NCBI GenBank assembly: GCA_965237525.1
Contig: CBDEFO010000008.1
Location: 1-64,000, forward strand
From: Candidatus Latescibacterota bacterium
GTDB taxonomy: Bacteria; Latescibacterota; CBDEFO01
Length of the DNA: 64,000 nt
Direction of reading: 5' to 3'
Program-made: the position numbers and the translations under genes
Part shown: positions 13,153-58,087 of the stretch, piece by piece
Numbering within the stretch: the stretch's first letter is position 1
Layout: every line of letters starts with the position of its first letter
Notes under the pieces: generated by a model
What the model was told of the DNA's origin: nothing
Databases searched by the model: none
The model's input: the letters and a program-made list of their open reading frames with translations, nothing else

Positions 13153-13237
13153 GCAGCGCTGACCTTAGCCTTCGCTGCATAACCCCGCTGGCGATAATAT
13201 CGCCAGCCTGACGCCCCGAAAGGGGCGTTTCTTTGTT
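13153..13237 (+). terminator. Three consecutive hairpins, the last resembling a plus-strand intrinsic terminator
   Basis: GCAGCG..CGCTGC (13153-13178), GCTGGCGAT-AAT-ATCGCCAGC (13187-13207), ACGCCCC-GAAA-GGGGCGT followed by TTCTTTGTT (13211-13237). Confidence 0.55.
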
Positions 13238-13245
13238 CCTTCCTC

Positions 13246-16200: not shown

Positions 16201-16839
16201 CAGCCGGGCAATGACGAGACTGGCTTCCAGGAACCAGTTGCCTGTGCGGGCTGCTTCGAGCTTGTCGTTCGTCAGGATGTCGAAGGGCAACTGGAACCGA
16301 CGGTAGAGCTCATCCTGCCATTGCTCCGCGAGACTACCGGGACAGACGACCAGACACCGCTGCAGATCACCGCGAGCGATCAACTCCTTGATGAGCAACC
16401 CAGCCATGATGGTCTTGCCGGCGCCCGGGTCATCGGCGAGAAGAAACCGAAGGGGCTGACGGGGCAGCATGGATTCGTAGACCGCGGTGATCTGATGGGG
16501 CAACGGCTCGACGTCCGAGGTGTGTACGGCGAGCACCCGGTCAAAGAGATGCGCAAGACGGATCCGCTGCGCCTCGGAGACCAGGCGGAACAAATCGCCG
16601 TCTCCGTCGAAGCTCCATGGCCGGCCTACTTCGACGATCTCGAGCCGCGCTTCGTCGTCACGGTACAGAAGCTCATCGGCGACCTCTCCGGTCGGTGTCT
16701 TGTACGTCAACTCAAGCGCTTCGGAGCCGAACCACTGCACGCTGACAACCGTGACGAGGCCGTCGGACAGGATGCCGCGCACCGCAGTTTTAGTCTGGAG
16801 ATCTTCCAGCTTCATGCTCTTGTTCTGTTCCCTGTTCAT
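13246..16839 (-). CDS. SNF2-family helicase with C-terminal DUF3883 (PD-(D/E)xK-like) nuclease
   Basis: LLADDPGAGKT, CDEAH, TATPH, TDAAGEGINLQ, QRFGRIHRIGQ; C-terminal GYDIES...FIEVKG. The true start may be MKLEDL at 16815. Confidence 0.92.
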   Translation of the reverse strand: MNREQNKSMKLEDLQTKTAVRGILSDGLVTVVSVQWFGSEALELTYKTPTGEVADELLYRDDEARLEIVEVGRPWSFDGDGDLFRLVSEAQRIRLAHLFDRVLAVHTSDVEPLPHQITAVYESMLPRQPLRFLLADDPGAGKTIMAGLLIKELIARGDLQRCLVVCPGSLAEQWQDELYRRFQLPFDILTNDKLEAARTGNWFLEASLVIARLDKLSRNKDVQQKLQAPDCRWDLVVCDEAHKMSATFFGGEVKYTKRYRLGQLLSSLTRHFLLMTATPHNGKEEDFQLFMALIDGDRFEGRFRDGVHVADVSDLMRRMVKENLLKFDGTPLFPERIAHTVPYKLSEAEAHLYKVVTDYVREEFNRAEALENDQRAGTVGFALTILQRRLASSPEAIYQSLRRRRERLESRLRELEVLQRGGQAAIAFPAAGPDLDPEDVEDLDEAAEEEILDRATAARSIAELKAEIETLKNLEGLALEVRRSGTDTKWRELASLLGGIFTAGGTSGQIVEEVRDADVPYGAGDIPRPTSSPKQKLVIFTEHRDTLRYLHGRITTLLGREESVVLIHGGMGREDRLKAQEAFRHDPHVQVLLATDAAGEGINLQRAHLMVNYDLPWNPNRLEQRFGRIHRIGQTEVCHLWNLVADETREGDVYRKLLDKLEQARETLGGQVFDVLGKLHFEGRPLRKLLIEAIRYGEQPEVRARLTTAVDHALDRVRLQDLLEERALAHDAMDASRVYRVREEMERAEARRLQPHYIESFFQAAFQRLGGSAKQREDRRYEITHVPAPVRNRDRLIGIGQPVLPRYERVAFEKSLVAPHGQPLAAFVCPGHPLLDAVIDLTLERHRDLLKRGAVLVDERDEGNKPRVLFYLEHAIQDASLTRSGDRRIISKRMLYVELDADGVTRHVHYAPYLDYRPLADDDPGLEQILERPQCAWIDRDVEKKAQGYAVANVVPEHLTEVREAKLALISKTEGAVRDRLTKEISYWDHRAEQLKLQEQAGKTGARLNSGEARKRADTLQTRLQKRLEELKLEAQISPLPPVVLGGLLVVPKGLIDEMSGRESAGTRTAVDTQESAARARNIIMEVERNLGFDPTDREFEKRGYDIESRVPDTGKLRFIEVKGRTSGASTITITRNEILYSLNKPEDYILGIVEFVDGTDHRVHYVRQPFQREPDFGVASVNYDFAELLARAGKPS

Positions 16840-17033
16840 ATTCGTGAACCCGGTGTGCCCCTCGGAGGGGTCAACTCCGTAGCTGCAGGGGTGTGATCTT
16901 GACTTGTCACCATCTCAACAGCCGTGTTGCTTCAGTCAGGCTTTTTGGAATGGGGTGGTATTTTACAGGCATGTCGCCCCGTTGCCGCATAAGATCATGG
17001 GCATTGTGCCGGCTCTCTTCCGACACATCTCTA

Positions 17034-17378
17034 TCAGGTGGGGATGCCGTCATCTCGGTCGTCCGCCATCACCAGGCTCCCTGCGGCTGCTGGTTGTGGC
17101 TCGTAGCGCTCGACGTTGATCTCATCCTCGCGTGCTTGCGCCTGGGCTACGTCGTAGGCCGCTTGCAACCGGATCCAGGTCTCCGTCGTAGAACCGAAGG
17201 CCTTCGCAAGGCGGACTGCCATGTCGGCTGAAATACGGGTGTGGCAATTCACCAGGCTCGAGAGTGCCTGGCGACTGACGCCCAGGACTTTCGCCCCTTC
17301 GGTGACGTTGAGACCGAGCGGCTCCAGACAGGACACACGCACCACCTTGCCGGGGTGTGGCGGGTTCTTCATAGGCAT
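17034..17378 (-). CDS. higA: HigA-family antitoxin (XRE HTH)
   Basis: MKNPPHPG...LGVSRQALS.LVN...ISADMAVRLAKAFG...WIRLQAAYD. Confidence 0.9.
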   Translation of the reverse strand: MPMKNPPHPGKVVRVSCLEPLGLNVTEGAKVLGVSRQALSSLVNCHTRISADMAVRLAKAFGSTTETWIRLQAAYDVAQAQAREDEINVERYEPQPAAAGSLVMADDRDDGIPT

Positions 17379-17394
17379 AGCGTTCCCCCTTCAT

Positions 17395-17520
17395 TTAGTG
17401 GTAGTCGATCAGTTCGACGTCATAGACGTCCTCGCCTGCGAAGCGGGAAATGATGCGCCAGTTGGCTTTCACGGTCACTGCCCAATAACCTTTCAGCTTG
17501 CCTTTGAGGGGATGCCCCAG
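17395..17520 (-). pseudogene. higB: 3' half of a HigB/RelE toxin
   Basis: Manual translation: HPLKGKLKGYWAVTVKANWRIISRFAGEDVYDVELIDYH*. No 5' half is present. Confidence 0.85.
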
Positions 17521-17762
17521 TCATCGAGAGCCGCCGCTAACGCGGTGGAGCCAAGGATATCGGCGAGGTCCGCTCCCTTGTTACGAGCGATCACTTGGTC
17601 AAGGGTGGCTTGCCCATGCAGGATGTCCGCGATGTCCTCCTGGAACATGGCAACGTCCCAAGGCTGTACCAGATAAACCATTCGCCTCTTCGAGTTGACC
17701 TGCGACTTCTCGATTACACAATCCATTTCATGAAGGCGTTGCCGGATTTCTCCAATGTCCAT
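17493..17762 (-). CDS. Hypothetical protein (89 aa) abutting the higB remnant
   Basis: ATG-started ORF with plausible composition; no recognised motif. Confidence 0.4.
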   Translation of the reverse strand: MDIGEIRQRLHEMDCVIEKSQVNSKRRMVYLVQPWDVAMFQEDIADILHGQATLDQVIARNKGADLADILGSTALAAALDDWGIPSKAS

Positions 17763-17799
17763 CTACAAATACTACCGCAGGACAAGCCCGTGACCACAG

Positions 17800-18075
17800 T
17801 GAAAGTGAGAGAAAGTCAGGGTGACCAGACCGTTGTTGTTCAGGATCTTCATGGATCGTGATCGACGATATCCTTCGGCCCTCCAGGGCCAACATCGCCG
17901 CCAGCCAATTGCAGCCATAGGCTAGATTTTCCAGCACCAACTGCTGGATCTGCAACACCGTCTCGGGCGGGGTTGTCTGGGGATGGCTCTGGTGGGTTAG
18001 CGGCGGGTCCTTCAGACCCTCAAATCCATGGGTCTGAAAGCGCCGCTTCCACTCACAACAGCTGCTCCGATCCAA
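17800..18075 (-). pseudogene. IS481-like transposase N-terminal HTH remnant
   Basis: WKRRFQTHGFEGLKD.P....SHPQTTPPETV..I..L.LE...YGC..LAAMLALEGRRISSITI. Confidence 0.7.
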
Positions 18076-18155
18076 TCCTCACTAACGACATGCCTCGGCA
18101 ACGTTCCCAACTCGTGTACCAATTTGAGAACGGTCACCTATTGAAGGCTTTCACC

Positions 18156-18353
18156 TCAGGATTTCTTCTGGCCTTCCTCCCAGAGGCGCGCGGCTTCTTC
18201 CGTGGTTATGCGGCCGACTTGTTCGATGTGACCTGCGGGCCATTTCTGCTGATGTTCCTGTTCGCGACGATCGAGGTCGTTCGTGATCCCGCTATGAACG
18301 ATCCTGTTTCCGACCTTGAAATGATACTTTTTCGTGTCTCGCTTGGCTCCCAT
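18156..18353 (-). CDS. Minimal GIY-YIG-like protein (65 aa)
   Basis: KYHFK...VHSGITNDLDRREQEH...ARLWE fits Y..(Y)IG.T.DL.RR..EH...E. Starts 3 nt after the E1 stop. Confidence 0.7.
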   Translation of the reverse strand: MGAKRDTKKYHFKVGNRIVHSGITNDLDRREQEHQQKWPAGHIEQVGRITTEEAARLWEEGQKKS

Positions 18354-18356
18354 CTG

Positions 18357-19748
18357 TTACTCCTTTGGTTGTAGTGGTTGTAGGTATTCCGGTATCTGAG
18401 AAATAATATACCGTTCGATATCGGCTTCATCTCCTTTGTCAGCCACAACACACTGAATGCAGCCCTCTCTCTTGAGGACGCGTGTTGGCACGGTCCACTG
18501 CGCCGACATGCGACCGGTTCCCAGGGCATCCAGATCCGTCCGGTAATTCACGGGCCGGAGAGCTGACACATAGACAGCAAATTCCGTAACAGCGGCGTTA
18601 ACTGCCGTACCGTTGAGTGAGACCACCGAGGGAGTCGGTACATCTATCCCTTCGATGTATCCGCGACCTCGGCGAAATTCCTGTTCCTCGGGAGGTGCAA
18701 GAAAATAGCTTGCTTCATCACGGTCGATCAGGCCGATGCAGTTGAGGCACGGCCCGCCAGGAATCACAGCGGCTACTTGACTTCCGGCCTCCGAGACGGT
18801 GCCGTCCGACGCATTGATCCCGACTCCGATGTCGAAGTATGGAATCCGGTAGGCCAGCGCCAACTCATTCAGGATAAGGCGTGCTCCGTCGTTGTCGACG
18901 CACCCGAATATCACATCGACACCCTTCAGTTTGTCGAGTGCCTGTCGGCAGCGTAGATTCTCTTGAAGTGCATCGACATGCGAGGTTGGCGCGACGCTTT
19001 TGACAAGACGGCGTGCCAGGATAACCTTCGGGGTCCCAATGTCCGCTGCAGTGGCTGTCACGAGGCGATTCATATTGGTGCTGTCCGCGAGGTCGAAGTC
19101 GATCACCAGGAAGTTCCGCACACCCATGAATACAAGCGCCTGAACCGCCTGCGAGCCTGTTCCGCCAGCGCCGACTACAGCGACTCTTGTGCGTCCAAGC
19201 TGACGCTGACCAGCTTCGGTAAACCAAACAACTTGGCGGGAGAAAGACGGATCGATCGGATCCTCGTTATGGGACACAACCTGAGCAAGGCGATCACCTG
19301 CGGCGGTAATACTATCGATGGTTCCGGTTCTCCCAGCTTCGAAGAAAAATTCTCCGTAGACGGTGTCGTCGCCCCAGACAGTCACCCCGTAGGGTCGCCC
19401 AGGCAGCGAGTCCAGAACGTACGGTACAAAGTCCTGAAATCCTTTCCGATCGGTCCCGGAGAATCGGGGCATGCGCCCGCTATGATTGTGGGCCTCGATC
19501 AAGGTTGACCTTAACCGCACGGCCTTGTTCACAATGTTGATCAATGCGCTGGTCTCGACTTCCCATCCGCTAGGGGTGACTCTTACGTCTCTGTTTGCAA
19601 TCAGGGAGATGTCGGTCACTATGAAGACAGGCTGTCCGGATGAAAGCGCCCACCTAGCGTGCAGGAACGCGAAGTGTTCCCCTGGGGTCGAGTAAAGGTG
19701 GCCCAGGATAGCTCTCCACTGGACTTGGTTAAGGCGGATCGTGGCCAC
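18357..19748 (-). CDS. JAB/JAMM peptidase + ThiF/E1 adenylyltransferase fusion
   Basis: JAMM motif HNH-x7-SGTD; FSRQ arginine finger, VVGAGGTGS, DSTNMNRL, GCVDN, and two CxxC motifs (PCLNC, GCIQC). Confidence 0.9.
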   Translation of the reverse strand: MATIRLNQVQWRAILGHLYSTPGEHFAFLHARWALSSGQPVFIVTDISLIANRDVRVTPSGWEVETSALINIVNKAVRLRSTLIEAHNHSGRMPRFSGTDRKGFQDFVPYVLDSLPGRPYGVTVWGDDTVYGEFFFEAGRTGTIDSITAAGDRLAQVVSHNEDPIDPSFSRQVVWFTEAGQRQLGRTRVAVVGAGGTGSQAVQALVFMGVRNFLVIDFDLADSTNMNRLVTATAADIGTPKVILARRLVKSVAPTSHVDALQENLRCRQALDKLKGVDVIFGCVDNDGARLILNELALAYRIPYFDIGVGINASDGTVSEAGSQVAAVIPGGPCLNCIGLIDRDEASYFLAPPEEQEFRRGRGYIEGIDVPTPSVVSLNGTAVNAAVTEFAVYVSALRPVNYRTDLDALGTGRMSAQWTVPTRVLKREGCIQCVVADKGDEADIERYIISQIPEYLQPLQPKE

Positions 19749-20131
19749 TAGTTGACCTCCGAAAGGCGATGTCGGACACCCTCCAGGAAGGTGAGGAGGT
19801 TATGGCCCAGACGGTAATCACCGTGAGGCTGCCAGTCTTCGACGTGGTAGGAGAATTGGAGCCACTGGCGTCCGATCTGTTCGACAGGACCGCTGCTGGC
19901 TCCCGGCTACTGACCGTTCTTTAGTCGAAGCGCCGGGTCGACATAGAAATTGTCCGGCGGGATTGTTGGGTATCCGGACGGAATCAGGATGAGCGTATCC
20001 GTGGCGTCCAGGCTCCACCCTCGTGGCAGGACGAGCCTCGTCAGGGTAAACCAATCAAGATTCGATCCGACTTCAAGCTTGGGGTGAGCCGCCTTGACGA
20101 GCTGAATTTCCTTCTGTCGTCGTTCTCGCAT
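19748..20131 (-). pseudogene. Prokaryotic E2 (family E-like), 127 codons with an in-frame TAG at 19907-19909
   Basis: LPRGWS...LILIPSGYPTIPPDNFYVDPALRL; the same frame continues past TAG as PGASSGPVEQIGRQWLQFSYHVEDWQPHGDYRLGHNLLTFLEGVRHRLSEVN*. Its stop overlaps the E1 GTG start. Confidence 0.85.
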
Positions 20132-20134
20132 GGT

Positions 20135-20398
20135 TCAACCCCTCTTGAATCTCGGAGCTTTCTTGAAGTGCTCCTTCGACTTGAGTTCAACCACCTCGTC
20201 CGGCGATAGCTGCTTCTGGCTTCCGTCCTCAAAGATCTGGACCAGGCCCGTCTCACGAGGAATTCTGGCTAAGTCCATGATTTCTCCAGCCGTAATTTTT
20301 GGTTCGTCGACGTGGAATTCCTTGCCATCTACGAAGAACGTAAAGACAGGCCCATGCCCGCCGTTCGGTCGATCTGGTTTCTTTTCAGTCATTTCCAT
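20135..20398 (-). CDS. Ubiquitin-like (multi-ubiquitin family) beta-grasp protein
   Basis: FTFFVDGKEFHVDEPKITAGEIMDLARIP...LSPDEVVEL...EHF; ends in an exposed tail APRFKRG; first gene upstream of E2 and E1. Confidence 0.82.
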   Translation of the reverse strand: MEMTEKKPDRPNGGHGPVFTFFVDGKEFHVDEPKITAGEIMDLARIPRETGLVQIFEDGSQKQLSPDEVVELKSKEHFKKAPRFKRG

Positions 20399-20439
20399 TC
20401 GCTACTTCCTTTCTCGTTCAGCTGCAAGCTTGCCATTAA

Positions 20440-20497
20440 CAAGCAGAACGCTTTAAATAGTAAGCAAAATCGCTGGAATTGTCAAGCGTTCTGCTTG
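20440..20497 (-). promoter_or_regulatory. Sigma70 promoter of the Ubl operon flanked by a 14-bp inverted-repeat operator
   Basis: Minus strand TTGACA (20485-20480), 17 nt, TACTAT (20462-20457). CAAGCAGAACGCTT (20440-20453) and AAGCGTTCTGCTTG (20484-20497) are perfect reverse complements. Confidence 0.8.
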
Positions 20498-20531
20498 ATT
20501 TTTCTAAGAAACAATGAGAACCTACTGTTGA

Positions 20532-20879
20532 ATGAGTGATTTATCGCAAGAATTATCACGATTGTGCAAACTGAGAGGAACGACCCTTCGCGCAGTCGAG
20601 GAAGGGACCGGGGTCTCGAACGCGTATTTGTCGCAGCTCGAGAACGGGTCGGTCAAGAGACCGCGTCCCCACGTCCTGCACAAGCTTGCGGACTTTTACG
20701 ATGTCGCGTACGAAGACTTGATGACCGCAGCCGGCTATCTGTCTCGCAATGACGAAAACCGGCCTGTTGATCCAGAACTGGTTGAGATCCAGCTGATGAG
20801 CGCGGGTCTCAGCAATCGGCAGAAGAAGGAATTGAAAAGATTCATACGCTTCTTGCAGCAGTCGCAGGAGGAAGATTGA
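20532..20879 (+). CDS. XRE-family HTH repressor (CapH/ImmR-like)
   Basis: TLRAVEEGTGVSNAYLSQLENG...P....LHKLADFYDV. Confidence 0.9.
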   Translation: MSDLSQELSRLCKLRGTTLRAVEEGTGVSNAYLSQLENGSVKRPRPHVLHKLADFYDVAYEDLMTAAGYLSRNDENRPVDPELVEIQLMSAGLSNRQKKELKRFIRFLQQSQEED

Positions 20880-20931
20880 GCGTTTACACGAGCAGAAGTG
20901 TCATCCTCCCCGTCCGGAGAGCGCAGACGTA

Positions 20932-21795
20932 GTGTCAGATTACGCCAGGAGGGCGTTGCGGGCCGCGGATGCCATTGGCCAACTTCCTACGCCGATCGAC
21001 GATCTTCTGGCAGCCGCTGAGATTGGAAACCTGCAGATCGACGAAGAAGTCAAGCAGAGTTTTTCCGCTCGACTCATCGGTGCCGCAAGGCAAGAGTTCG
21101 ATTCGATGTGGCAGAAGATTCGCGGGATTGCTGATCTTCGAGAACGCGTAACCTACGTCGATGAGAACACCACCCAGCCCAGAATCCGATTTGCTAAGGG
21201 ACACGAACTTGGCCATGAAGTGCTGCCGTGTCACCATCTGGATCCGGGTTGCTTCGACGACGAGAAGAGCCTGACCTGGGAGGCCGAGGAAATTTTCGAC
21301 ATGGAGGCGAATTTTTTCTCGGCAGAAGTGATATTTCAGGGCAGCAATTTCACCCGAATTGTTCGAGACTACACCGTTAGTTTCGACTCCATCTTCCATC
21401 TTGCAGACATCCACGGGGCCTCTCGTCACGCTACTGCTTGGCGTTATGTCGAAGAACAGGACGAATCTGTTGCGCTCGTGATGTATTGGCCCAGCAAGTT
21501 CAATTCCGAAATTCTTCGCCGGGGTAAGGTTGTTGCATCGTCAAATTTCCTTCGCAAATTCAGCGAGATCGATCTGCCGCGCCAGCTGGATCCAGGCCAT
21601 GATTGGATGACTACCCATGCTTCCAACCTCATTTACGGCGATATGATTTCACTGACCTGCGGCAAAGTTACGTTCCGGTTCGAATGGGAAGCTTGGTGGA
21701 ACGGATACGGACTGTTGGTGATGCTGCGGCGCAAACCGAAGCTTCACTTTGTCCGGCATCTCGCGGACAAAGTCACAGTGGCTTCTAGCAGATAG
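20932..21795 (+). CDS. ImmA/IrrE-family Zn metallopeptidase (CapP-like)
   Basis: RFAKGHELGH (HExxH) and EANFFSAE. The true start may be TTG at 20876 with a C missing in a C-run near 20908. Confidence 0.88.
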   Translation: MSDYARRALRAADAIGQLPTPIDDLLAAAEIGNLQIDEEVKQSFSARLIGAARQEFDSMWQKIRGIADLRERVTYVDENTTQPRIRFAKGHELGHEVLPCHHLDPGCFDDEKSLTWEAEEIFDMEANFFSAEVIFQGSNFTRIVRDYTVSFDSIFHLADIHGASRHATAWRYVEEQDESVALVMYWPSKFNSEILRRGKVVASSNFLRKFSEIDLPRQLDPGHDWMTTHASNLIYGDMISLTCGKVTFRFEWEAWWNGYGLLVMLRRKPKLHFVRHLADKVTVASSR

Positions 21796-21931
21796 GCTGT
21801 CCAGTTCCGCTTCGCAGGTAAAGCCGATCTTGGTAACCGCGCCGCGCCGAGGATATCTGTTCCCGATAAGCCGCGTGAGAGGCCCACACGGCCGCACGAT
21901 AGAATGGGGCTAGGGGGGACCACATTCTGAC

Positions 21932-22756
21932 ATGGCAAGACGAATAACGCTGTCCCAATGGAAAAGCAAGGTGCGCCAAGCTCAGCAGAAGAAGCGCCAA
22001 GCGATTGACAAATACAATCGTGAGGTAAATGCCTACAACGCGCGTGTTCGAGCCGACAGACAGCGGCTCAGGAATGAACTCGCACGGCTCAGCCGTCAAG
22101 CGGCAACAGCACGCTTTGCTACCTTCAGGACATCGTTCAACGTAGTTCATACAGCGTACGAACGGCTCGAACAAGCAGCAATAGGACACCGTTTTGATGC
22201 GCGTCACAACGAGATCCTTGATCTCGCGGAGCGAGAGGCCGCCAACAACGCGGGTTTGATGAACGCGATCTTGGGCGATTTGGATGCGTCCAGCCAAACA
22301 CCGGCGAACCCGTCCGATAGCCCGCTGACTCCAATCCTTCACGCGATATCTGCCGATTTCAGCGACCGTTGGCGGCGCGCGCTCTTTTCTTTAAACCCGC
22401 TCAACCCCGATGCAGCGCGCCACTTTTGTTCTAGCACCCGAGAGATCATCGCAGGAATTCTGGATACTAAAGCACCTGACGCTACCGTTGCTGCCGCCAT
22501 GCCTGCCTGCGACCGTACACCTTTGGGGACACCGACGCGCCGCGCCAAGATTCGCTACTTTCTTCACAATAATGGGATGTGTCAGGACGAGCTTGAAGAT
22601 TTCGTCGAGGCCGACATGAACAACGTTGTTGAGCTGTTTGATGTGTTCAATAAGGGCACCCACGGTTCCGCCGGGAAATTCAACCTGTCTCAGCTTCAGG
22701 CGATTCGCAAGCGGGCCGAAGACGGCATCATGTTCCTTTCCAGCCTAGTGATCTAA
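21932..22756 (+). CDS. Coiled-coil + predicted pPIWI-associating nuclease (pP_pnuc_1-like) protein
   Basis: Basic coiled-coil N-terminus; ALFSLNPLNPDAARHFCSSTREII, PTRRAKIRY, FNKGTHG. Confidence 0.6.
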   Translation: MARRITLSQWKSKVRQAQQKKRQAIDKYNREVNAYNARVRADRQRLRNELARLSRQAATARFATFRTSFNVVHTAYERLEQAAIGHRFDARHNEILDLAEREAANNAGLMNAILGDLDASSQTPANPSDSPLTPILHAISADFSDRWRRALFSLNPLNPDAARHFCSSTREIIAGILDTKAPDATVAAAMPACDRTPLGTPTRRAKIRYFLHNNGMCQDELEDFVEADMNNVVELFDVFNKGTHGSAGKFNLSQLQAIRKRAEDGIMFLSSLVI

Positions 22757-22960
22757 AAAGCGGGCTGACGAAGGTAATCGCTTCGGGCCTACCATCGGAC
22801 TCCGGGTGGTCGAGTTCAACCGGGAACCCAATGTCCCATTTTTCCTCTCAGATTGAGATGCGCACGATGATATTGCGGATGACGGTCTTGTGCCGGCGGT
22901 CGTAGAGGCGAGTGGTGCGGGGGGCGACGTGGCCGGCGATAACGCCGGACGCGAAGGCGT

Positions 22961-23160
22961 TTCAGTTCATCCAGGACAGACGACCGTCGAGAACGGCGAC
23001 AGTTCGCTGATGGTGCGGTTCAAGGCAGGTGGAATCGAGGAAATGTGCTGGCACCTCGTGACCTGGGGAGGGAGCGTCACGGTCGAACGGCCGGCCGGAT
23101 TTCGCCGGCGACTGGCCGAAATGTACGCCGCGCTCGCGGTTAACCATCGCGCCGAGTGTT
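22961..23160 (+). pseudogene. C-terminal (WCX) fragment of a WYL-domain regulator
   Basis: HPGQTTVENGDSSLMVRFKAGGIEEMCWHLVTWGGSVTVERP; no HTH or WYL core upstream. Confidence 0.65.
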
Positions 23161-23299
23161 CCGATCAAGAAACCCGATCCTGATTACAAGCATCAGCGGC
23201 AGAGCGGCTCGACTGAAGGATATGCGACGACCGCAGGTGCCTCAACCGCCGGATCACGGCAGAGAATCTGCGATGTTTGCACGCGCATCGAGGATGCGG

Positions 23300-23716
23300 T
23301 GTGCATTGCCGCCGCTGTATGCGCCCCTCATTCGGCTATTGATGCGCTGGGACCGGGAAGGTGCCTTGCCGCCGGAGCCGCTCACCGAAATCATCGCGGT
23401 GAACCGCTGGGTTGCCCAACACTCCGGGGTGCTCGCCTTCTTCGGGGATGCGACCCGGGAGGATCGTAGGGTGGACATCGAAGACATTGTGACCGATCTG
23501 GTTGAGGAACTCGTCTCCGATGACCGCGCCCTCGGCTGCGAGGCGGAGACGCGTCGCGCCCTCGCTATCATCCGCGACGGAACCAGCACGGACCGGAAGG
23601 TCGATCTATTTCGCCTGCTCCGCCTAGAGGGGGACACAGAGGAAGCGGCGCTCCACAGAGTGTTCGATCTGCTACTCGCCGAGACCTGGGAGGACATCGG
23701 GGAAGCGTCTGGTTGA
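23300..23716 (+). pseudogene. C-terminal fragment of a YbdK/GCS2 carboxylate-amine ligase
   Basis: IIAVNRWVAQHSG...ALGCEAE...IIRDGTSTDR...ALHRVFDLLLAET. Confidence 0.65.
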
Positions 23717-23761
23717 TCCGCAGGAACTATTAGGGACCCAGGGCGTCCGAGGCGGATCCGG

Positions 23762-24920
23762 TCACGGGAGGATCGGCACGACCTTCGGTTCCCGATTCCC
23801 ACCAGCTAGGAACTTCGCCCACTGCTCCATCAAGACGCGCCGGCGCTCAAACAGGTCCGAGCGGGCATAGGCCGCTTCCACCTGGTTCCGGACCACATGC
23901 GACAACGCTGCCTCCATCACCGCATGGGGCGCGTCCGTGCATTCGGCCGCCCAGTCGCGAAAGGTCGAACGGAATCCGTGCGGCACGGCTGGGATGCCCA
24001 GTTCCCAAAGCAAGGTGTTGAAAACAGAGTCCGATAGGGCTCGTCCAGTGGGAGACGGAAACACCCATTCCGACAAGAGCGTGTTTTGTTTCGCCTCGAT
24101 CAGAATTTCCCGCGCCCGGGACGACAATGGCACCCGGTGCTCCCGTTTGTGCTTCATCCTCTCCGGGGGAATCCTCCACTCTCCGGCCTCCAGGTCGACC
24201 TCCTCCCAGCGGGCCCCGCGCACCTCCCCGGAACGGCACGCCGTCAGAACCAGAAACTCGAAGGCCAGCTTGACCGCAACCACCGTCTCGGATTGCCGCA
24301 CTGTCCGGATCGCACTAGCCACCTCTCCATAGGGCAGCGCCCGGTGGTGCCGTTGAATGCCGCCAGGTTTGGGCAACGCGGCCCCGATCGCCTCCCCGGC
24401 CGGATTGTCCAGCCGGTAGCCTTGGGCAATGGCCCACTTCATCACCGTGCCGTCTGGTGCTTGGAGTTCCAGATCGGGAGCAGGACGGCCATGACATCGG
24501 CCGAGCGGATCCAATCTACCCGCTTCTGGCCAATCTTCGGGTATACATAGTCCCGCAGGGTTCCTGTCCACTGGGCGGCGTGCCTGCCACTTTTCCAGTT
24601 CGGCCGGTGCATGGCGATCACCTTGGCGGCGGCCTGCTCGAACGTCGGCACGGATTGGCGCCTGGAGGCTATGGGATCGCCACCCGCCCGAGCCAGTCTG
24701 CGGTTGGCCACTGCAGTCTCCCGGGCTTGGGCCAGCGTCACCAGCCGGACCGGACCCAGGCCTAATTCCCGGCGCTTGCCATGTATGAAGAGCCGTTGGA
24801 TCCATTGCTTGTATCCGGACGGCTTGACGCGTAGTATCAGGCCGTGCTCGTCGCAAAAGATACCCGGCTTTGGACGGTGCGGACGAAGGCGGCGGTGAGT
24901 TTCTTACCATGTCGAGCCAT
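23762..24920 (-). pseudogene. P4-like tyrosine integrase with arm-binding domain, disrupted
   Basis: MARHGKKLTAAFVRTV, HGLILRVKPSG.KQW, RELGLG, VTLAQAR; catalytic TACRSGE, MK, HGFRSTF, LSH, AY. One frameshift near 24870 and a deletion near 24447. Confidence 0.9.
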
Positions 24921-25301
24921 TGGATCACCCTTTTATGATCACACTAGTGATCACCCTTTCAGTCCTGGAATACACCAGACTTACACAGGATGCCACTATA
25001 CCACAAGTAATTCACAAACAGACAGCTATACTATATTATTGCACATCATGGAATCTAGCAGGACTATGAATAAGCGGATTGCCTGGCCGCTCAATGGCTT
25101 GCTGCCTCTCCAGCAAACGGCCCATGCCTCCTCCCGACGACGATTTGCTTCTCTCACAATGGTGCTATCTTGCTTCGGACTTTAGTCTCTGCGAGAACAC
25201 CTCGCTCTTTACTGCCTCCACTCCTCAGCGAAGCGCCCACCGGCCCCGTCAGGAGTTGCGACTCCTAATGAGACGCGAAGGGGAACCAGAACCGATCTGA
25301 T

Positions 25302-32256: not shown

Positions 32257-33775
32257 AAGCCTTGTGAAAAACCCTTAGATTCAGAAAATAGTATAAAACA
32301 AGCATTGATAAAGCAGCTCCGATGTATTATATTATGTTATTGATAATATTATACATGGAGGAAACAATGACCCCACAAAAGCAGGAACAGACAAATCCGA
32401 TGTTTCACTATTTTCAGATGGAGGATTTAGTTCCCGAGGATCATATCCTTCGTCAGATTGATGAGGCAGTTGATTTTTCATTTGTACGAGACGTTGTATC
32501 AGATTGTTATTGCCCTGACAATGGCAGACCCGGTATTGATCCTGAATTAGTTGTTCGAATGATCCTTATTGGCTATCTGTATAATTTGAGTGAGAATCGG
32601 CTCTGTCAGGAAGTGGGGATGCATGCGGCATATCGGTTGTTTTGTCATCAGACATTTGATGATGCGGTTCCGGATAGGAGCACGATCAACAAGCTTCGCA
32701 ATCACAAGTGGGCATCCAGTGGGTTGTTTGAACGGATAATGCGTCAGGTAGTCCAGTGTTGCATAGATGTCGGTCTTGTGAGCGGTAAACACCTTAGTGT
32801 CGACGGCACTCAGATACAAGCTGATGCTTCAGTGAAAAGTATTGAGCCGATAGAACCCCCTGTTTCTCTTGATGATTATCTCAAGGGAATCGGTTTTGAA
32901 GGTGATAAGACAAAGGGTAGGTCCGGGCATCCTCAGGATAAAGACTTTCATGGTGAAAAGTGGACGAACCAAACACACCGTTCGACTACAGACCCCGACG
33001 CGCGCTTATACAGCAAATCGAAGGGCAAAGGGGCTTTTCTCTCGTTTATGGGCCATGATCTGATCGACACAAAAAGCAGAGTAATCCTTGAGACTCAGGG
33101 CACGCAGGCGACAGGGACAGCAGAGCCCGAAAGTGCCCTTAAGATGGTAGATGACCTTGAAACATACACCATGCCCAAAGACATTCAGACACTTAGTGCC
33201 GATACCGGTTACGGTTCTGGTAATTTTATCGCTGATGTACTTGACCGGGGAATCATACCCCATATTCCTCTGCGAGCCGATGAGAAGATTGAACCGATTC
33301 CTACATGGAAAAACAAGACAAATTCAGCACATATTCAGGCCGAACGGGATAGAAAAGTGCGAGAGGCGAAAGCCAGAAATCATGCACGGTCTATCTCATT
33401 AACAGCTGACTACAAACTCTCCCGGAGACTCCGTAAACGCAGTGAACATATCTTTGCTGAAGCCAGGCAACAACACGGTATGGGACGAGCCCGTTATAGA
33501 GGACCAGCCTCACTGAATGAACAGTTGAATCTTGTTGCAACAGTACAGAATCTCAAGAGGCTTGTATCTTTCATAAGAAGGGGGAAAGCGTCTATGTGTG
33601 CCCTGCCTGTCAAAGACAGTGCATCCTGTTCTTCAAACAGCTCCTGTTCCTTGCTGACCAGAACTCTGATAAGACTATTTTGCTTATTCCACAGCAAAAC
33701 GATACGATATGCTACTCTTTGACCCATAATCGGCGCTTCAGACGCTGCCTGGGACATAACTATTTCACAAGGCTT
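32257..33775 (+). mobile_element. IS1182-family insertion sequence
   Basis: IRs AAGCCTTGTGAAA / TTTCACAAGGCTT; TTAA direct repeat at 32253-32256 and 33776-33779. Confidence 0.9.
32367..33722 (+). CDS. IS1182-family DDE transposase
   Basis: LVPEDHILRQID, GRPGIDP, VDGTQIQADAS, STTDPDARL, ADTGY, R.RSEHIFAE; GGAGG RBS before ATG 32367. Confidence 0.92.
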   Translation: MTPQKQEQTNPMFHYFQMEDLVPEDHILRQIDEAVDFSFVRDVVSDCYCPDNGRPGIDPELVVRMILIGYLYNLSENRLCQEVGMHAAYRLFCHQTFDDAVPDRSTINKLRNHKWASSGLFERIMRQVVQCCIDVGLVSGKHLSVDGTQIQADASVKSIEPIEPPVSLDDYLKGIGFEGDKTKGRSGHPQDKDFHGEKWTNQTHRSTTDPDARLYSKSKGKGAFLSFMGHDLIDTKSRVILETQGTQATGTAEPESALKMVDDLETYTMPKDIQTLSADTGYGSGNFIADVLDRGIIPHIPLRADEKIEPIPTWKNKTNSAHIQAERDRKVREAKARNHARSISLTADYKLSRRLRKRSEHIFAEARQQHGMGRARYRGPASLNEQLNLVATVQNLKRLVSFIRRGKASMCALPVKDSASCSSNSSCSLLTRTLIRLFCLFHSKTIRYATL

Positions 33776-34902: not shown

Positions 34903-35354
34903 GGTTATTAGTCATATGAAATCGGAACGCTTCCCTTTGGGCATTTGTATTGAGCTTGAATTATAGCGCTGTGCTGATCTCAGGCTCTTGGTGCTTTTCA
35001 AGATGGATGTATAACCCTTGTTCTTTTGGATTCCGTTCACCCACGAAAAAGCATTTGATGTAAGAGGAGTTAGGAAACACTTTCTCATCTAACACATCCC
35101 CGATAGAATCAATCGGGGATAAATGCTTTGTCTGTCTGTACCGTATCCTGTTGAACCTATATTTCAACATAGACTTGGAAAAAAATCTTGCTTCGTTTGG
35201 ATCCTTCTACTTGGGGGAGGGTAACCGTTGTATCGTTGGGATGCAGTTTAGACCATTGAAATCTCTGATACACTTCTTGTAGGCTTTCAAACCCGGTTCT
35301 GTTCCAGAATCTTCCAGAAAACTTAGAACTGCTGCCTTTACTATATGAACCCAT
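34903..35354 (-). mobile_element. Decayed 3' portion and right IR of a relative of the IS at 44991-46292
   Basis: FWNRTGFESLQEV, QDTVQTDKAFI, DVLDEKV and LYIHLEK align with the 45093..46283 protein. GGTTATTAGTCATATGAAATCGG matches its IR. Confidence 0.85.
35099..35117. repeat. 19-bp palindromic insertion CCCGATAGAATCAATCGGG
   Basis: Absent from the intact IS homologue (ATCGAT at 46095-46100). Related copies near 55992-56010 and 57920-57950. Confidence 0.85.
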
Positions 35355-35433
35355 GTCCAGCGTTCTGATTTCATCTGATATTTAACCGTTACACAGCGGT
35401 ATTCAGTGGAAGGAACTTCCCCGATGTTGAGGC

Positions 35434-36163: not shown

Positions 36164-38149
36164 TCAGAAGACCCCGAGCGGATTGCCCCTCATCCCTGTG
36201 AAGTAATCTATCGTGAGCCACGTCGCTGCCACGACCATCTGCCCTAAGATCAGACCCAAAAAGAAAGGTCGAGTCTTTCTGAATACTGCAGCGCCGCCGT
36301 ACTTGATTATGATCACCTTGAAGAACCACGCCAAAAAGACATTAAGCCACATCTGATTTATTAAGTAAACGGGGCTGATTACGTAGCCGATGGGATGGAT
36401 AGGCCACCATATAAAGCGGTATCGGATAAAGCTCAAAAGGCCCATAACAGATGCCCCTATGCCGGTGGCTACCCATCCTCCGATGTTGGGAGTAAGGGCC
36501 CCTGCTACCCTTGAGGTTATGTAATCGAAGGGTTCTCGCGGAGCCCCGCCAAAAAACCAGGCGTAGAGGTTGATTCCGCCTTCCTGGTATGCCATGTTTA
36601 AGACCATCCACATCGATCCTGCCAGGCTCACAACGATGGAAAGCATCATCGCCCAGAAGAGCGGCCTTCTATTACCTACCACCACATTGATCAACTTGAG
36701 CCCGTTGGCGCACGAAGCCATAACAAACGTCCTCAACTCACCGTGCCAGGCGTGTGTGTACGCCAGCGCGACTAATCCTTTAGGTCCTAAAACTGTGGTC
36801 CCAAGCCCGGATACCACGAAGTCCGAACCCAGTATAGGCGGCCGCATATCAGGCATCCCTCCCTCTGATACTACACGGGTCATCCCTATAAAGATAACAA
36901 AGGCAACAAACACGAATATGGGGACGATCCAGAGGGGCATTCCGGTAGTCCACAGCCAAAAGCCTATAAAAAGGAGCCCTAAAACCATGCCAAAGAAAGC
37001 GGTCCGGTAAGATAGAATCTCGTCCGAGTCGTCCACGTTTGGGTCGTTCTTGAATGCCTTCCTGAGGACGCCCTTTAGGTGCTCCCGACCTGTCCACAGT
37101 CCTAACATGACAAAGACTATCATAGCTCCCATGCCCTGATGGAGCAGGTATGGTGACGAGGCCCAGGTGTAAGCATAGAGGCTCATTATCTGTGGGCTGT
37201 GGAAACCTATCATATTGAAAATGCCGTGCTCCACGTTGGACAGCAGGGAAAAGGACCAAATCGCAAGGGCGATGTCGCGGGGTATAAGATAGACGAATCC
37301 TATAATATGAAAACGGAGATCGAAATGAATGTTGATTGCGTTGCGAAACATGGACATATTGGCGAAAAGGTCTATATCTGGAACGAACGGATAGTACCCA
37401 TGGAGGGCATCTACACTGTCTATGACAAAAGGAATGGCAAATCCGAGCCACATAACGGGGCTTTTGAAAAATGGCGCAAGATAACCGCCTTTATCGTCCC
37501 TTATCATTTCCATAGGTGTCTGAATCAGCGGATAGATCACCCTCTCCCTCTCTACCCACTGCCTCCTTAAGATCACCATTATGCATATCATCACAAAATA
37601 AAGGACAATGGCAAAGGAAGACCAGTACAAAAGGGGCCTAATCCACATCCCCCAGGGTATCGTCTCTCCCTCAGGCAGACCTTCGTAGAAATACTTAATA
37701 TACTCTGGATCTCGAGGGGATATCCAGTCGGGGATATATGGATGGATCAGATTTACCCAGTCGTTCTCAGGGGTAGCAAAGTAGTATACACCCACGATTG
37801 CCGGAAGTAGGTGTTCGGTGAGACCTACAGCCACTATAGACGAAGCTACGATCATCATAATGTAGATCGTAACTAATTCGGTGGATTCAAACTCGATTCC
37901 CCTTTTGGTCAGCTTCAAAAGGGTGTTTACTATCCCTACGAAGATAAATAGAAGGAAGAGAGCTCCACCGGTGCTGAACGTACCAGCCATCCAGGAACCC
38001 ATGATCAGGGAATCGCTGTATGGGGCGGCTATGGATATAAAAAAGGAGAGCGCCGCTCCCACAACAAAAGATCTGACGGTAAAACGTCGAGGCGGTCTGT
38101 CCTGGCTAACGGTACGATCAGTCTTGAAATCCTCAGTCCTTGTCTCCAT
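36164..38149 (-). CDS. Polytopic membrane protein, DUF6785/DUF6784 (OPT-like putative transporter), copy 1
   Basis: Many TM segments; RRQWVERERVIYP and WWPIHPIGY motifs. Confidence 0.8.
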   Translation of the reverse strand: METRTEDFKTDRTVSQDRPPRRFTVRSFVVGAALSFFISIAAPYSDSLIMGSWMAGTFSTGGALFLLFIFVGIVNTLLKLTKRGIEFESTELVTIYIMMIVASSIVAVGLTEHLLPAIVGVYYFATPENDWVNLIHPYIPDWISPRDPEYIKYFYEGLPEGETIPWGMWIRPLLYWSSFAIVLYFVMICIMVILRRQWVERERVIYPLIQTPMEMIRDDKGGYLAPFFKSPVMWLGFAIPFVIDSVDALHGYYPFVPDIDLFANMSMFRNAINIHFDLRFHIIGFVYLIPRDIALAIWSFSLLSNVEHGIFNMIGFHSPQIMSLYAYTWASSPYLLHQGMGAMIVFVMLGLWTGREHLKGVLRKAFKNDPNVDDSDEILSYRTAFFGMVLGLLFIGFWLWTTGMPLWIVPIFVFVAFVIFIGMTRVVSEGGMPDMRPPILGSDFVVSGLGTTVLGPKGLVALAYTHAWHGELRTFVMASCANGLKLINVVVGNRRPLFWAMMLSIVVSLAGSMWMVLNMAYQEGGINLYAWFFGGAPREPFDYITSRVAGALTPNIGGWVATGIGASVMGLLSFIRYRFIWWPIHPIGYVISPVYLINQMWLNVFLAWFFKVIIIKYGGAAVFRKTRPFFLGLILGQMVVAATWLTIDYFTGMRGNPLGVF

Positions 38150-38248
38150 AAATTGAAAAGGGTCCTTACACTCTTCTGATGTGGTATATCAGATATTTAT
38201 CAAATGCACCAGTTGCTTGTATTTGCAGGTGTCTTGGCGCCATTTTCT

Positions 38249-40234
38249 TCAAAATTGCCCGAACGAATTGCCCCTCATCCCTGTGAAGTAATCTATCGTG
38301 AGCCACGTCGCTGCCACGACCATCTGTCCTAAGATCAGACCCAAAAAGAAGGGTCGAGTCTTTCTGAATACTCCAGCGCCGCCGTATTTGAGTATGACTA
38401 CCTTGAAGAACCACGCCAAAAATACGCTAAGCCACACCTGATTTATTAAGAACACGGGGCTGATTACATAGCCGATGGGATGGATAGGCCACCATATAAA
38501 GCGGTATCGGATAAAGATCAAAAGGCCCATAACAGATGCCCCTATGCCGGTGGCTATCCATCCTCCGATGTTGGGAGTAAGGGCCCCTGCTACCCTTGAG
38601 GTTATGTAATCGAAGGGTTCTCGCGGAGCCCCGCCAAAAAACCAGGCGTAGAGGTTGATTCCGCCTTCCTGGTATGCCATGTTTAAGACCATCCACATCG
38701 ATCCTGCCAGGCTCACGACGATGGAAAGCATCATCGCCCAGAAGAGCGGTCTTCTATTACCTACCACCACATTGATCAACTTGAGCCCGTTGGCGCACGA
38801 AGCCATAACAAACGTCCTCAACTCACCGTGCCATACGTGTGTGTACGCCAGCGCGACTAATCCTTTAGGTCCTAAAACTGTGGTCCCAAGCCCGGATACC
38901 ACGAAGTCCGAACCCAGTATAGGCGGCCGCATATCAGGCATCCCTCCCTCTGATACTACACGGGTCATCCCTATAAAGATAACAAAGGCAACAAACACGA
39001 ATATGGGGACGATCCAGAGGGGCATTCCGGTAGTCCACAGCCAAAAGCCTATAAAAAGGAGCCCTAAAACCATGCCAAAGAAAGCGGTCCGGTAAGATAG
39101 AATCTCGTCCGAGTCGTCCACGTTTGGGTCGTTCTTGAATGCCTTCCTCAGAACGCCCTTTAGGTGCTCCCGACCTGTCCACAGTCCTAACATGACAAAG
39201 ACTATTATAGCTCCCATGCCCTGATGGAGCAGGTACGGTGACGAGGCCCAGGTGTAAGCATAGAGGCTCATTATCTGTGAGCTGTGGAAACCTATCATAT
39301 TGAAAATTCCGTGCTCCACGTTGGCCAGTAGAGAGAAGGACCAAATCGCAAGGGCGATGTCGCGGGGTATAAGATAGACGAATCCAACAACATAAAAGCG
39401 GAGATCGAAGATAATCCGAGTTGTGTTGTGAAGTATGAACATGCTAGTGGAAAGGTCAATATCCGGAACGAACGGGTAGTAGCGATGGAAAGCCTTTGCG
39501 CTGTCTATGAAAAAAGGGATGGCAAATCCAAGCCACATAACTGGATTTTTGAAAAATGGCGCAAGGTAACCACTCTTATCGTCCCTTATCATTTCCATAG
39601 GCGTCTGAATCATCGGATAGATCACCCTCTCCCTCTCTACCCACTGCCTCCTTAAAATCACCATCATGCATATCATCACAAAATAAAGGACAATCGCAAA
39701 CGAAGACCAGTACAAAAGTGGCCCCATCCACATCCCCCAGGGTATCGTCTCTCCCTCAGGCAGACCTTCGTAGAAATATCTAATGTACTCTGGATCTCGA
39801 GGGGATATCCACTCGGGGATATATGGATGGATCAGATTTACCCAGTCGTTCTCAGGGGTAGCGTAGTAGAATACACCGGCGCTGGCAGGAAGGAGGTGTT
39901 CGGTGAGACCTACGGCCACTATGGACGAAGCTACGATCATCATAATGTAGATCATAACTAATTCGGTGACTTCAAACTCGATTCCCCTTCTGATCAGCTT
40001 CAAAGGGGGGTTTACTATCGCTACGAGAATAAATAAAAGGAAGATTGCTCCACCGGTGCTGAAGGCGCCAGCCATCCAGGAGCTCATGATAACGGAATCG
40101 CCGTATGGTGCGGCTATGGATATGAAAAAGGAGAGCGCTGCTCCTACAACAAAAGATCTGACGGTAAATCGTCGTGGTGGTCTCTCCTTCTTAACGGCAT
40201 AATCGGTATTGAAATCCGTAGCTCTTATCTCCAT
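38249..40234 (-). CDS. Polytopic membrane protein, DUF6785/DUF6784, copy 2
   Basis: Same 661-aa length and mostly identical to copy 1. Confidence 0.8.
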   Translation of the reverse strand: MEIRATDFNTDYAVKKERPPRRFTVRSFVVGAALSFFISIAAPYGDSVIMSSWMAGAFSTGGAIFLLFILVAIVNPPLKLIRRGIEFEVTELVMIYIMMIVASSIVAVGLTEHLLPASAGVFYYATPENDWVNLIHPYIPEWISPRDPEYIRYFYEGLPEGETIPWGMWMGPLLYWSSFAIVLYFVMICMMVILRRQWVERERVIYPMIQTPMEMIRDDKSGYLAPFFKNPVMWLGFAIPFFIDSAKAFHRYYPFVPDIDLSTSMFILHNTTRIIFDLRFYVVGFVYLIPRDIALAIWSFSLLANVEHGIFNMIGFHSSQIMSLYAYTWASSPYLLHQGMGAIIVFVMLGLWTGREHLKGVLRKAFKNDPNVDDSDEILSYRTAFFGMVLGLLFIGFWLWTTGMPLWIVPIFVFVAFVIFIGMTRVVSEGGMPDMRPPILGSDFVVSGLGTTVLGPKGLVALAYTHVWHGELRTFVMASCANGLKLINVVVGNRRPLFWAMMLSIVVSLAGSMWMVLNMAYQEGGINLYAWFFGGAPREPFDYITSRVAGALTPNIGGWIATGIGASVMGLLIFIRYRFIWWPIHPIGYVISPVFLINQVWLSVFLAWFFKVVILKYGGAGVFRKTRPFFLGLILGQMVVAATWLTIDYFTGMRGNSFGQF

Positions 40235-44990: not shown

Positions 44991-46292
44991 GGTTGAATAT
45001 CAAATGAAATCGGTGCACCTAATTTGATCTTTGTTTAGAGTATTAGTAGATTAAGTTGAGTTGATTGTCTTAACTTTAATCTACGGAGTCCTATGGACAA
45101 AGAGAGATTGGCCGTATTAAGACAAGAAGTCAACGAGATGTATTTTAAGAAAGAAATGTCAAAGCGAGAAGTTATCAAACAAGCGAGAGTTTCCAATGAT
45201 TTCGTTACAGCTTGGACTAAATCTCCGGATCAGGATTTTGCCATAGATAATCGGGGTTGGCCAAAAGGAAAAAGGCGAAAATTGGCTAAAGTTGACGAAC
45301 AGAGAATCAAAGAGATTTACCATAGCTTAGAGGACGATCCTTATCAGTTCTATTCAGGAGCCACTGTTATTGAACAAGAATGGAGGAATCGATATTCTAG
45401 CACCCCTCCTCCGTCGTTGCCGACTATCGGCAGAATGCTTTCAGATTTAGGACTTTCCCAGAGAAGGAAGAAAGGTAAAAACAAGGGTGCATCTCGTTAT
45501 CTTTGTTATCCAGAGTATACCATTTACTATCTTTCAGGAGGCAGAGTCCTAGAATCAGACTTTATTGGTAAAAAGTATCTTACCGGCAGAACTGAGCCGG
45601 TCAACTTCGTTGGATTTTCCTTTAAGAAAGAGCCTAAGTTAAGGTATTTTCGGCGGGTTGACGGTCAAACAGCAACTAACTTTATCGAGAAGTGTCAGTC
45701 TTTCTTTGACAGGTTTGAAAAACCAGATTTCGTTAAGGTGGACAATTGCTCGGCGACTATTGGCAGTGTTTCAGGTAAAAGGAATGTCAGCAAAGCAATG
45801 CAGTTTCTCTTGAAAAATCAAGTGATTCCGATATTTGCCGTTCCCAGAAGGCCCTTTTCTCAAGCATCTATAGAAGGCAACAATTCTGTATTTTCAAGGA
45901 AGTTCTGGAACAGAATTCAGTTCAAAAGCTTACAAGAAGTTGATCAGAAGTTAGAATGGTTTAATCTTTCATCACAGAGATACACCGGCTACCGTCCACC
46001 TAAGCAAGAGAAGTCAAACGAGAAAGATTTCATTCCCAAGACCTATTTTATCAGACAAGTCAAACAGGACACAGAACAGACAGATAAAGCCTTTATCGAT
46101 GTCCTAAATGAGAAAGTATCTCTTCCCTCCTCTTACACCAACTACTTTGTCCTGGCTGAATGGAACCTAAAAGAAGAACAATTATACATCCATTTTGAAA
46201 AAGAACAGAAACCAAAGATTGTCGAAAACCTATCATTCAAGATCAATCAAAGATCGAAAGAGAAGTGCACCGATTTCATTTGATAAATAACC
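44991..46292 (+). mobile_element. Insertion sequence with 28-bp IRs and 6-bp target duplication (IS481/ISNCY-like, family uncertain)
   Basis: GGTTGAATATCAAATGAAATCGGTGCAC vs GGTTATTTATCAAATGAAATCGGTGCAC (3 mismatches); CTTAAC at 44985-44990 and 46293-46298. Confidence 0.88.
45093..46283 (+). CDS. Integrase-core (rve-like) DDE transposase
   Basis: HTH region (PPSLPTIGRML), ESDF, VKVDN, P..QASIEGNN; stop codon lies inside the right IR. Confidence 0.8.
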   Translation: MDKERLAVLRQEVNEMYFKKEMSKREVIKQARVSNDFVTAWTKSPDQDFAIDNRGWPKGKRRKLAKVDEQRIKEIYHSLEDDPYQFYSGATVIEQEWRNRYSSTPPPSLPTIGRMLSDLGLSQRRKKGKNKGASRYLCYPEYTIYYLSGGRVLESDFIGKKYLTGRTEPVNFVGFSFKKEPKLRYFRRVDGQTATNFIEKCQSFFDRFEKPDFVKVDNCSATIGSVSGKRNVSKAMQFLLKNQVIPIFAVPRRPFSQASIEGNNSVFSRKFWNRIQFKSLQEVDQKLEWFNLSSQRYTGYRPPKQEKSNEKDFIPKTYFIRQVKQDTEQTDKAFIDVLNEKVSLPSSYTNYFVLAEWNLKEEQLYIHFEKEQKPKIVENLSFKINQRSKEKCTDFI

Positions 46293-55924: not shown

Positions 55925-56223
55925 TTTCTCCTGCGTAAGACAACTGTTATTGTGGGATACTATACTCTGATTTCTTCCCAGAAAGTTGTTCCGCGATAGA
56001 ATCAATCGGGGATGCCAAGCTTCGCCTGCGACGGGCAGTCAACGCTCGACCTTAATGGGGACCAATTTTGCGGTGCTTTCTCCTACACAAGCCGTCAGTA
56101 GTCAGGGCACAAGCGGCGGCAGTTAAGTTTCTGTCAAGCAGTTGTTGCAAGTTAAGCGTCATCGTTAGCTATCTTCTGTAGAGCGTCCAAATAGGTTTAC
56201 GCCCGATTAGATCTGTCCGGGGT

Positions 56224-57726: not shown

Positions 57727-58087
57727 AGGTGATCTCCTCTCTTTGTCGATTCCCCACCAGCCTATGACTTAATTCAGTATTGTGATTCCTCGCCATAACC
57801 TGAGAAAACTGGACTCCCATTGTGGCATCCTCTGCTGTGTTACCCTCACTTTCTCGTTCCTTATACGATGTATTATGCTACAGACTATTGCCCCCAGATT
57901 CCTTCCCAAGAAGCTCTTCGCCGATAGAATCAATGATAGAATCAATCGGGGATGGCGAGCGTCGCCTGCGACACCGAGTTGATATTCGACCTTTTTGGGG
58001 GCCGTCTGCCGTTTCTGTCTCTGACAGACGCGGAGTGCACACTTCGCCGCCTCCTTACAGTCAAAGAGGCAACCAGCCGGCGTCTTT

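Follow-up and report, generated by a model that had tools for sequence, protein, structure and literature searches.

The stretch of DNA analyzed here (the window) comprises the initial 64 kb of contig C8 in a genome of Candidatus Latescibacterota (G000; 4.58 Mb, 96.6% complete), which we compared with a sister genome of the same genus that is ~95% alike (G001; a single contig of 4.54 Mb). At 35 kb the window holds a short hairpin located inside the relic of an insertion sequence (IS), an intact relative of this IS lies farther along, and two decayed copies of the hairpin follow (Table 1). Positions 1-35 kb contain no copy of the element; they include an island-like block (10291-25000) with genes for an SNF2 helicase, an AAA/PHP protein and a ThiF protein together with an integrase remnant, as well as a DUF772/DDE transposase gene (32322-33722) whose family has ~140 copies in G000 and reflects heavy recent IS expansion. 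A tandem pair of 661-aa DUF6785/DUF6784 paralogues occupies 36164-40234. A search of Rfam with window positions 34-60 kb matched no family.

Table 1. Positions of the hairpin copies and associated insertion sequences in the window
Feature	Position	Strand	Remarks
23-bp hairpin element, T..A type	35097..35119		8-bp arms, 7-nt loop; 19-bp core 35099-35117
Host IS relic, internally deleted	34903..35387	-	derived from IS 44991-46292; also in G001
Intact IS	44991..46292	+	transposase ORF 45093-46283; empty site ATC^GAT within 46089-46103
Decayed element copy	55990..56012		core 55992-56010; inside short host repeat; also in G001
Decayed element copy	57918..57952		12-bp internal tandem duplication (57920-57950); also in G001

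The intact IS has ~50 near-identical copies in G000, whereas G001 contains only relics and one empty site. Its 396-aa protein, for which we found 865 homologues and no matching Pfam family, belongs to a 51-member protein family in G000. Several copies of the IS are bordered by a 6-bp duplication with a central TA, and others have non-matching flanks.

The 485-bp relic keeps both ends of this IS but has lost most of the transposase gene. When relic and intact IS were aligned with BLAST, a single clean gap of 19 bases appeared at the empty site, and the reading frame of the relic shifts at this point, as a preliminary description of the window had stated. The 19 additional bases are real: the same site is empty in 52 copies of the IS across G000, and extra residues are absent there from all 120 transposase homologues, the distance between anchors being 11 residues (as in the query) in 115 homologues, 12 in 3 and 10 in 2. 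Because the IS copies are empty and the homologues lack extra residues, the filled state is derived at 35 kb. The inserted hairpin folds with an 8-bp stem at -7.5 kcal/mol, a stability equaled in 1 of 200 shuffles. Two further relics carry the insertion at the identical place and agree with the window relic in its orientation and loop variant; these relics are 91.5% alike, and each is 75-78% alike to the window relic. On the simplest reading of these alignments, the three filled relics would go back to one ancestral event.

The two decayed copies were also correctly described beforehand, including the tandem duplication in the second. Both occupy one common host repeat, and their shared TTC^GAT context is therefore probably the product of one event. 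As all three window copies are present in G001 as well, they are old. From the window alone, one exact match would not have been beyond chance (13 of 100 shuffles).

Copy number, distribution and filled and empty sites

Across G000 we counted 306 cores with a 7-nt loop, against 0.76 expected, and 21 further cores with a 3-nt loop; at up to 4 substitutions from the 21-mer the number rises to 603, and a reversed control gave 0. The motif is thus not limited to the three copies in the window. Copies are mostly singlets, with only 49 of 543 gaps between neighbors shorter than 200 bp, and they are depleted in the cores of long ORFs, which served as a proxy for genes (52 of 551 copies versus 326 expected), though in-frame copies are tolerated. 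Other repeats are preferred hosts: 36 of 125 copies lie in them, compared with 4.8% of random non-ORF positions, and in 64 of 189 contexts the element is nested in the element itself. In a nested 42-bp compound, a G that is otherwise rare occupies the center in 8 of 18 contexts, which are unrelated, versus 4 of 125 simple copies (p=5e-6), and since this private base recurs in unrelated contexts, compounds appear to be copied whole. In a raw count, eight of the 52 tRNA/tmRNA genes in G000 have an element copy within 300 bp, three of them within 41 bp.

Within the phylum, only G000 (306 copies) and G001 (278) among 168 Latescibacterota genomes are rich in the element, no other genome exceeding 8 loose matches. 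A scan of public genomes returned at least 56 stretches with the element; among the matches listed, one Candidatus Latescibacterota record accounts for 44 and metagenome-assembled genomes (MAGs) of Deltaproteobacteria for 10, and there was one each in a Thermodesulfobacteriota MAG and on a short contig binned with Nanoarchaeia. The same 21-mer is found in a Deltaproteobacteria clade, where 9 of 61 carrier and surrounding genomes hold 1-18 copies each. Metagenomes contributed 30 stretches (many redundant; GC 38-61%), and no copy was found in the viral contigs searched. This patchy distribution suggests that the element may have spread horizontally. In metagenome stretches L261 and L264 (~60% GC), two tandem copies with a 27-bp period lie inside a long ORF, one of them flanked by a 4-bp direct repeat.

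At corresponding sites, one sister genome may have the element and the other not. In the 2.8 of 4.54 Mb of G001 covered by the allele comparison, 143 of 327 G000 copies had orthologous flanks, with 85 sites shared, 50 empty and 8 other, some G000 rows being paralogues that fall on one G001 site. In the reverse direction, 117 of 164 G001 copies had orthologous flanks in G000 (90 shared, 23 empty, 4 other). At two polymorphic sites we found both states in other public assemblies, the filled state in X2 and X8 at one and in X2 and X6 at the other, and the empty state in X4 and X7, respectively; X4 and X7 stem from one sample, are identical to G001 there and may be its source. Copies inside genes point the same way: in 13 of 15 comparisons with paralogous proteins, a peptide of 6-11 residues (of the types SPIDSIG, PDRFNRG and PRLNLSG) is missing from the paralogue. 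One block, found on contig C2 and at C4:546-555 kb, has duplicated genes, among them a FabF-like ORF with two in-frame element copies, and is either a real duplication or a strain-level assembly overlap.

We consider it very likely that these polymorphisms arose by insertion and not by deletion. Hairpins between short direct repeats are readily deleted, and at least one polymorphic row (C1:13238) resembles such a deletion; moreover, the intergenic polymorphisms come from a comparison of just the two sister genomes, and the in-gene polymorphic events were filtered for multiples of three. However, the transposase homologues show that the 35-kb site was ancestrally empty, paralogues lack the peptide in nearly all in-gene comparisons, and the empty alleles do not have the YC/GR ends that precise deletion would leave. 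Deletion of old static repeats would also leave 300-600 dispersed copies unexplained, and the occurrence of both states in other assemblies speaks against errors of assembly. That the empty alleles are deletions or assembly errors is therefore, in our judgment, quite improbable.

The preliminary description had further suggested that the element may inactivate mobile genes, which raises the possibility of a host defense against insertion sequences. Older IS relics do hold more copies than expected (10 versus 2.6). Young IS DNA, in contrast, contains 5 copies versus 35.4 expected, which already contradicts such a defense, and all 5 are in one IS3 context that accounts for 9 of the 15 IS-associated copies and kept spreading. 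In addition, 52 copies of the window's own IS are empty, the agreement of the three filled relics in site, orientation and loop variant speaks for a single event, and the 35-kb relic is an already deleted derivative in which stop codons flank the insertion on each side. We regard defense as having hardly any probability; the 35-kb copy probably represents an old insertion carried as a passenger by an IS relic, and the host site itself is ordinary.

The mobile unit and its junctions

We compared 125 independent non-nested copies at the positions 2 outside the core. These form T..A pairs in 64 copies, C..G pairs in 35 and mixed pairs in 9 (p=1e-18), the reverse-oriented pairs A..T and G..C being rare (3 of 125), and the Deltaproteobacteria lineage follows the same end rule. 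Filled and empty alleles mismatch in 31 of 58 cases at the first outer position and in as many at the second, compared with a background of 4.9% farther out. As the empty alleles differ there from the filled ones, the element brings these outermost 2 bp along at both of its ends, and the end pairs do not stem from the target. Consistent with this, in 24 replacement events the filled alleles have YC in 22 and GR in 21, and the empty alleles have each in 10. The mobile unit is thus most likely 23 bp long with paired ends (T..A or C..G). The 19-bp unit and C^G target proposed earlier are a special case, since the TCGA target at 35 kb masks the overwriting of bases and makes the event look like a precise 19-bp insertion; precise insertion without duplication holds for that site but does not describe the family, in which bases are lost or duplicated.

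To classify these outcomes we reduced 85 polymorphic rows to 58 anchored, 47 unique, 40 collapsed and finally 29 simple events, 11 complex ones being excluded from the class counts. Among the simple events, 4 target bases were lost in 13, 5 in 6, 3 in 4 and 2 in 1, and 4 bases were gained in the remaining 5. The net length added falls mostly at 23 minus 2-5 or 23 plus 3-4; in none of the 47 unique events is it exactly 23. A perfect 4-bp duplication is present in only 1 of the 5 +27 events, and one +26 event has a perfect 3-bp duplication. Perfect direct repeats at the edges of the 23-mer are nevertheless in excess among the 125 copies, both of 4 bp (6 versus 1.0 in shuffled sequence) and of 3 bp (12 versus 3.7), with 0 of 300 shuffles as high in either case, and this excess is independent of event polarity. 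The short variant with a 3-nt loop obeys the same rule in 3 of 4 events.

Filled and empty pairs, found in both directions between the sister genomes, also allowed us to derive a target bias. On the 5' side of the junction, read on either strand, a purine is the last base in 159 of 188 half-sites; 116 have YNR (local background 22%) and 72 have YYNR (background 11%), the bias being the same at both junctions. The junction bases pre-exist in the empty allele, with R at -3 in 24 of 29 events and Y at +3 in 21 of 29. The target is identical to the terminal 2 nt of the element at 54 of 116 positions, against 25% expected, and mismatch exceeds background also at positions 3-4 (11 and 13 of 58) and at 6, a tail that a clean 23-bp join does not predict.

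Three other accounts of the ends were rejected. A TCGA/CCGG target of restriction or methylase type fails, as the empty alleles often have neither tetramer, and neither is unusual in G000 (0.94 and 0.90 of expected). Insertion at the centers of palindromes was discarded because the flanks, beyond position 2, pair no more often than in shuffled sequence. Later extension of the stem templated by the target is at odds with the scarcity of A..T and G..C ends and with events that retain neither target base. As a separate observation on tetramers, CTAG is strongly depleted in G000 (0.27 of expected).

The loop varies at its central base in 38% of copies and at its other positions in 2-12%. The central base is not hypermutable in 45 shared orthologous pairs, which suggests that selection for mobility may act on all but this base.

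Candidate mechanisms and the search for an enzyme

We lean, with slightly more than even confidence, toward a gene-less 23-bp hairpin inserted by a dedicated enzyme that nicks both strands after 5'-YYNR, the hairpin being joined between the nicks. In such a process, two nicks would fall on opposite target strands, each after 5'-YYNR, and a 23-bp copy of an existing element would be joined between them; a stagger in one direction would give a 3-4 bp duplication and in the other a loss of ~4 bp, and 2-bp microhomology to the element ends would help the joining. That stagger direction sets the choice between duplication and ~4-bp loss, aided by the end microhomology, is a proposition to which we give an even chance. 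The donors are likely existing genomic copies and not one master. As for the agent, the balance tips a little toward a trans-acting nuclease or strand-transferase and away from replication slippage.

A different account of the same junctions needs no dedicated enzyme: the hairpin would be copied in the course of host replication or repair, through microhomology-mediated template switching or end joining. The microhomology at the terminal 2 nt and the mismatch tail over positions 3-6 are better explained in this way than by two nicks, and the variable net lengths, the frequent nesting (64 of 189), the preference for other hairpin repeats and the lack of a dedicated gene among the families searched also accord with it. 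On the other hand, the junction bias is one of purine/pyrimidine class with a free position, which is more like recognition by a protein; the end pairs are almost exclusively T..A or C..G; the loop is conserved except at its center, with no central hot spot in shared copies; and, general as the host machinery is, the family is restricted to one genus among the 168 phylum genomes. Taken together, we rate template switching as rather unlikely.

The search for an enzyme followed a list of candidate families and was not a proteome-wide profile. The Y1 transposase family (PF01797) had no match in G000 or G001, and when 19 ORFs from RAYT loci were used as tblastn queries, no match in G000 reached RAYT level. 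Reverse transcriptases number 2 in G001 and none in G000, and so are not common to both; small GIY-YIG and IS110 genes occur in G000 only, as do weak DUF559 matches, and a four-helix bundle gene is represented by a single broken gene in G001 only. Neither genome yielded Ku, Cas1, LAGLIDADG or GxxExxY genes. A Y2 search showed no gene shared by the two genomes, but it lacked a working positive control and is uninformative. Both genomes have HNH and integrase genes, yet in G000 they are no nearer the element than random positions. Among the matches listed, no neighboring gene recurs across lineages, and most ORFs bracketed by whole element copies belong to ordinary genes. G000 also contains numerous short fragments from the C-terminal part of tyrosine integrases, dispersed over the genome.

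These results bear on the earlier suggestion that the element is a REP mobilized in trans by a RAYT/Y1 HUH transposase, which in this case would have been lost or would visit on a mobile element. The imperfect hairpin is of REP size, RAYTs are present in all 4 Deltaproteobacteria-clade carriers searched, and G000 retains GTAG-type REP motifs although it has no RAYT, so that loss of the enzyme is possible. But with no Y1 in either sister genome, both nonetheless have lineage-specific copies; the element lies in 0 of 20 RAYT loci of other carriers; copies are mostly singlets; and a GTAG-like tag is adjacent to only 19 of 306. Insertion by Y1 enzymes is single-stranded, which does not fit a two-sided target bias with variable loss and gain. 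We therefore hold mobilization by a RAYT to be improbable.

A further step beyond the two-nick reading is a tentative and on the whole doubtful possibility, namely an undescribed mode of mobility in which an enzyme outside the known transposase classes pastes the 23-bp hairpin, nearly identical in different bacterial phyla, between independent YYNR nicks, one reaction giving either a 4-bp duplication or a 4-bp overwrite. If this were true, such machinery could also account for the spread of REP-like repeats without a transposase. Whatever the agent, the sister genomes supply dozens of before-and-after sites for a transposase-less repeat, and the 23-bp unit, its paired ends, the target bias and the two junction outcomes are constraints on any candidate enzyme. 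At least two distant lineages carry the element, which also inserts peptides into proteins.

Relation to known small repeats

Literature searches with the exact core sequence and the peptides, which largely did not extend to subscription journals and supplements, found no relevant paper. Among known classes, MITEs mobilized by DDE transposases differ from the element, which has no fixed-length target duplication: most events lose bases, and 3-4 bp duplications are a minority. The Rickettsia palindromic elements and the GC clusters of yeast mitochondria are selfish palindromes that proteins tolerate as in-frame inserts; the element is like them in its in-frame peptides, while its size, hosts and junctions probably differ from theirs.

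The GTAG REPs and REPINs associated with RAYTs are described as short imperfect hairpins, non-autonomous and present in hundreds of mainly extragenic copies (PMC3116915, PMC3733652). The element shares all of these features, including non-autonomous mobility, but its GTAG tag is confined to 19 of 306 copies, it forms no doublet unit, and no RAYT was found in G000 or G001. The CGTC-tagged REPs, including dRS3/NTS of Neisseria, are presented in PMC3733652 as having an 8-9 bp stem, a 4-5 nt loop, intragenic copies and no dedicated transposase, and their spread is stated there to be an open question. The 8-bp stem of the element agrees with theirs, whereas its loop has 7 nt, a CGTC/TGTC tag occurs in 1 of 306 copies and a CCA-like tail in 4 of 306. 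Tagged hairpins with the same stem do occur in other carriers (L215, L267, L272), and shared ancestry with the CGTC REPs is for this reason plausible. Ssn GIY-YIG nucleases are associated with NTS (PMC11893778). In G000, a small GIY-YIG (Ssn-like) gene at C4:479829-480150 lies between inverted NTS-like repeats; these differ from the element, and the gene is missing at the orthologous place in G001, so that the unit of gene and repeats may itself be mobile.

The closest comparison is with the SDRs of cyanobacteria of the Nostocaceae, which we compared by description only. Elhai et al., writing in Genome Res in 2008 (volume 18, page 1484), reportedly found SDRs of 21-27 nt in other repeats and in genes. 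To our knowledge, no enzyme is known for them. Two later papers describe SDRs as very small, palindromic and gene-less repeats that enter at defined spots (PMC4390886, PMC5861425), SDR5 entering HIP1 exactly between its bases 3 and 4 (PMC4390886). The element resembles them in its length of 23 bp, its 306-603 dispersed copies and its filled and empty sites, including those in genes and other repeats. It differs in belonging to another phylum and in its loose, two-sided YYNR bias with bases overwritten or duplicated, where SDR5 inserts precisely into HIP1. The preliminary description had proposed a minimal mobile palindrome resembling a REP, and the hundreds of copies with filled and empty alleles bear this out; on the present analysis, we would place the element as a variant among SDR-like very small mobile repeats.
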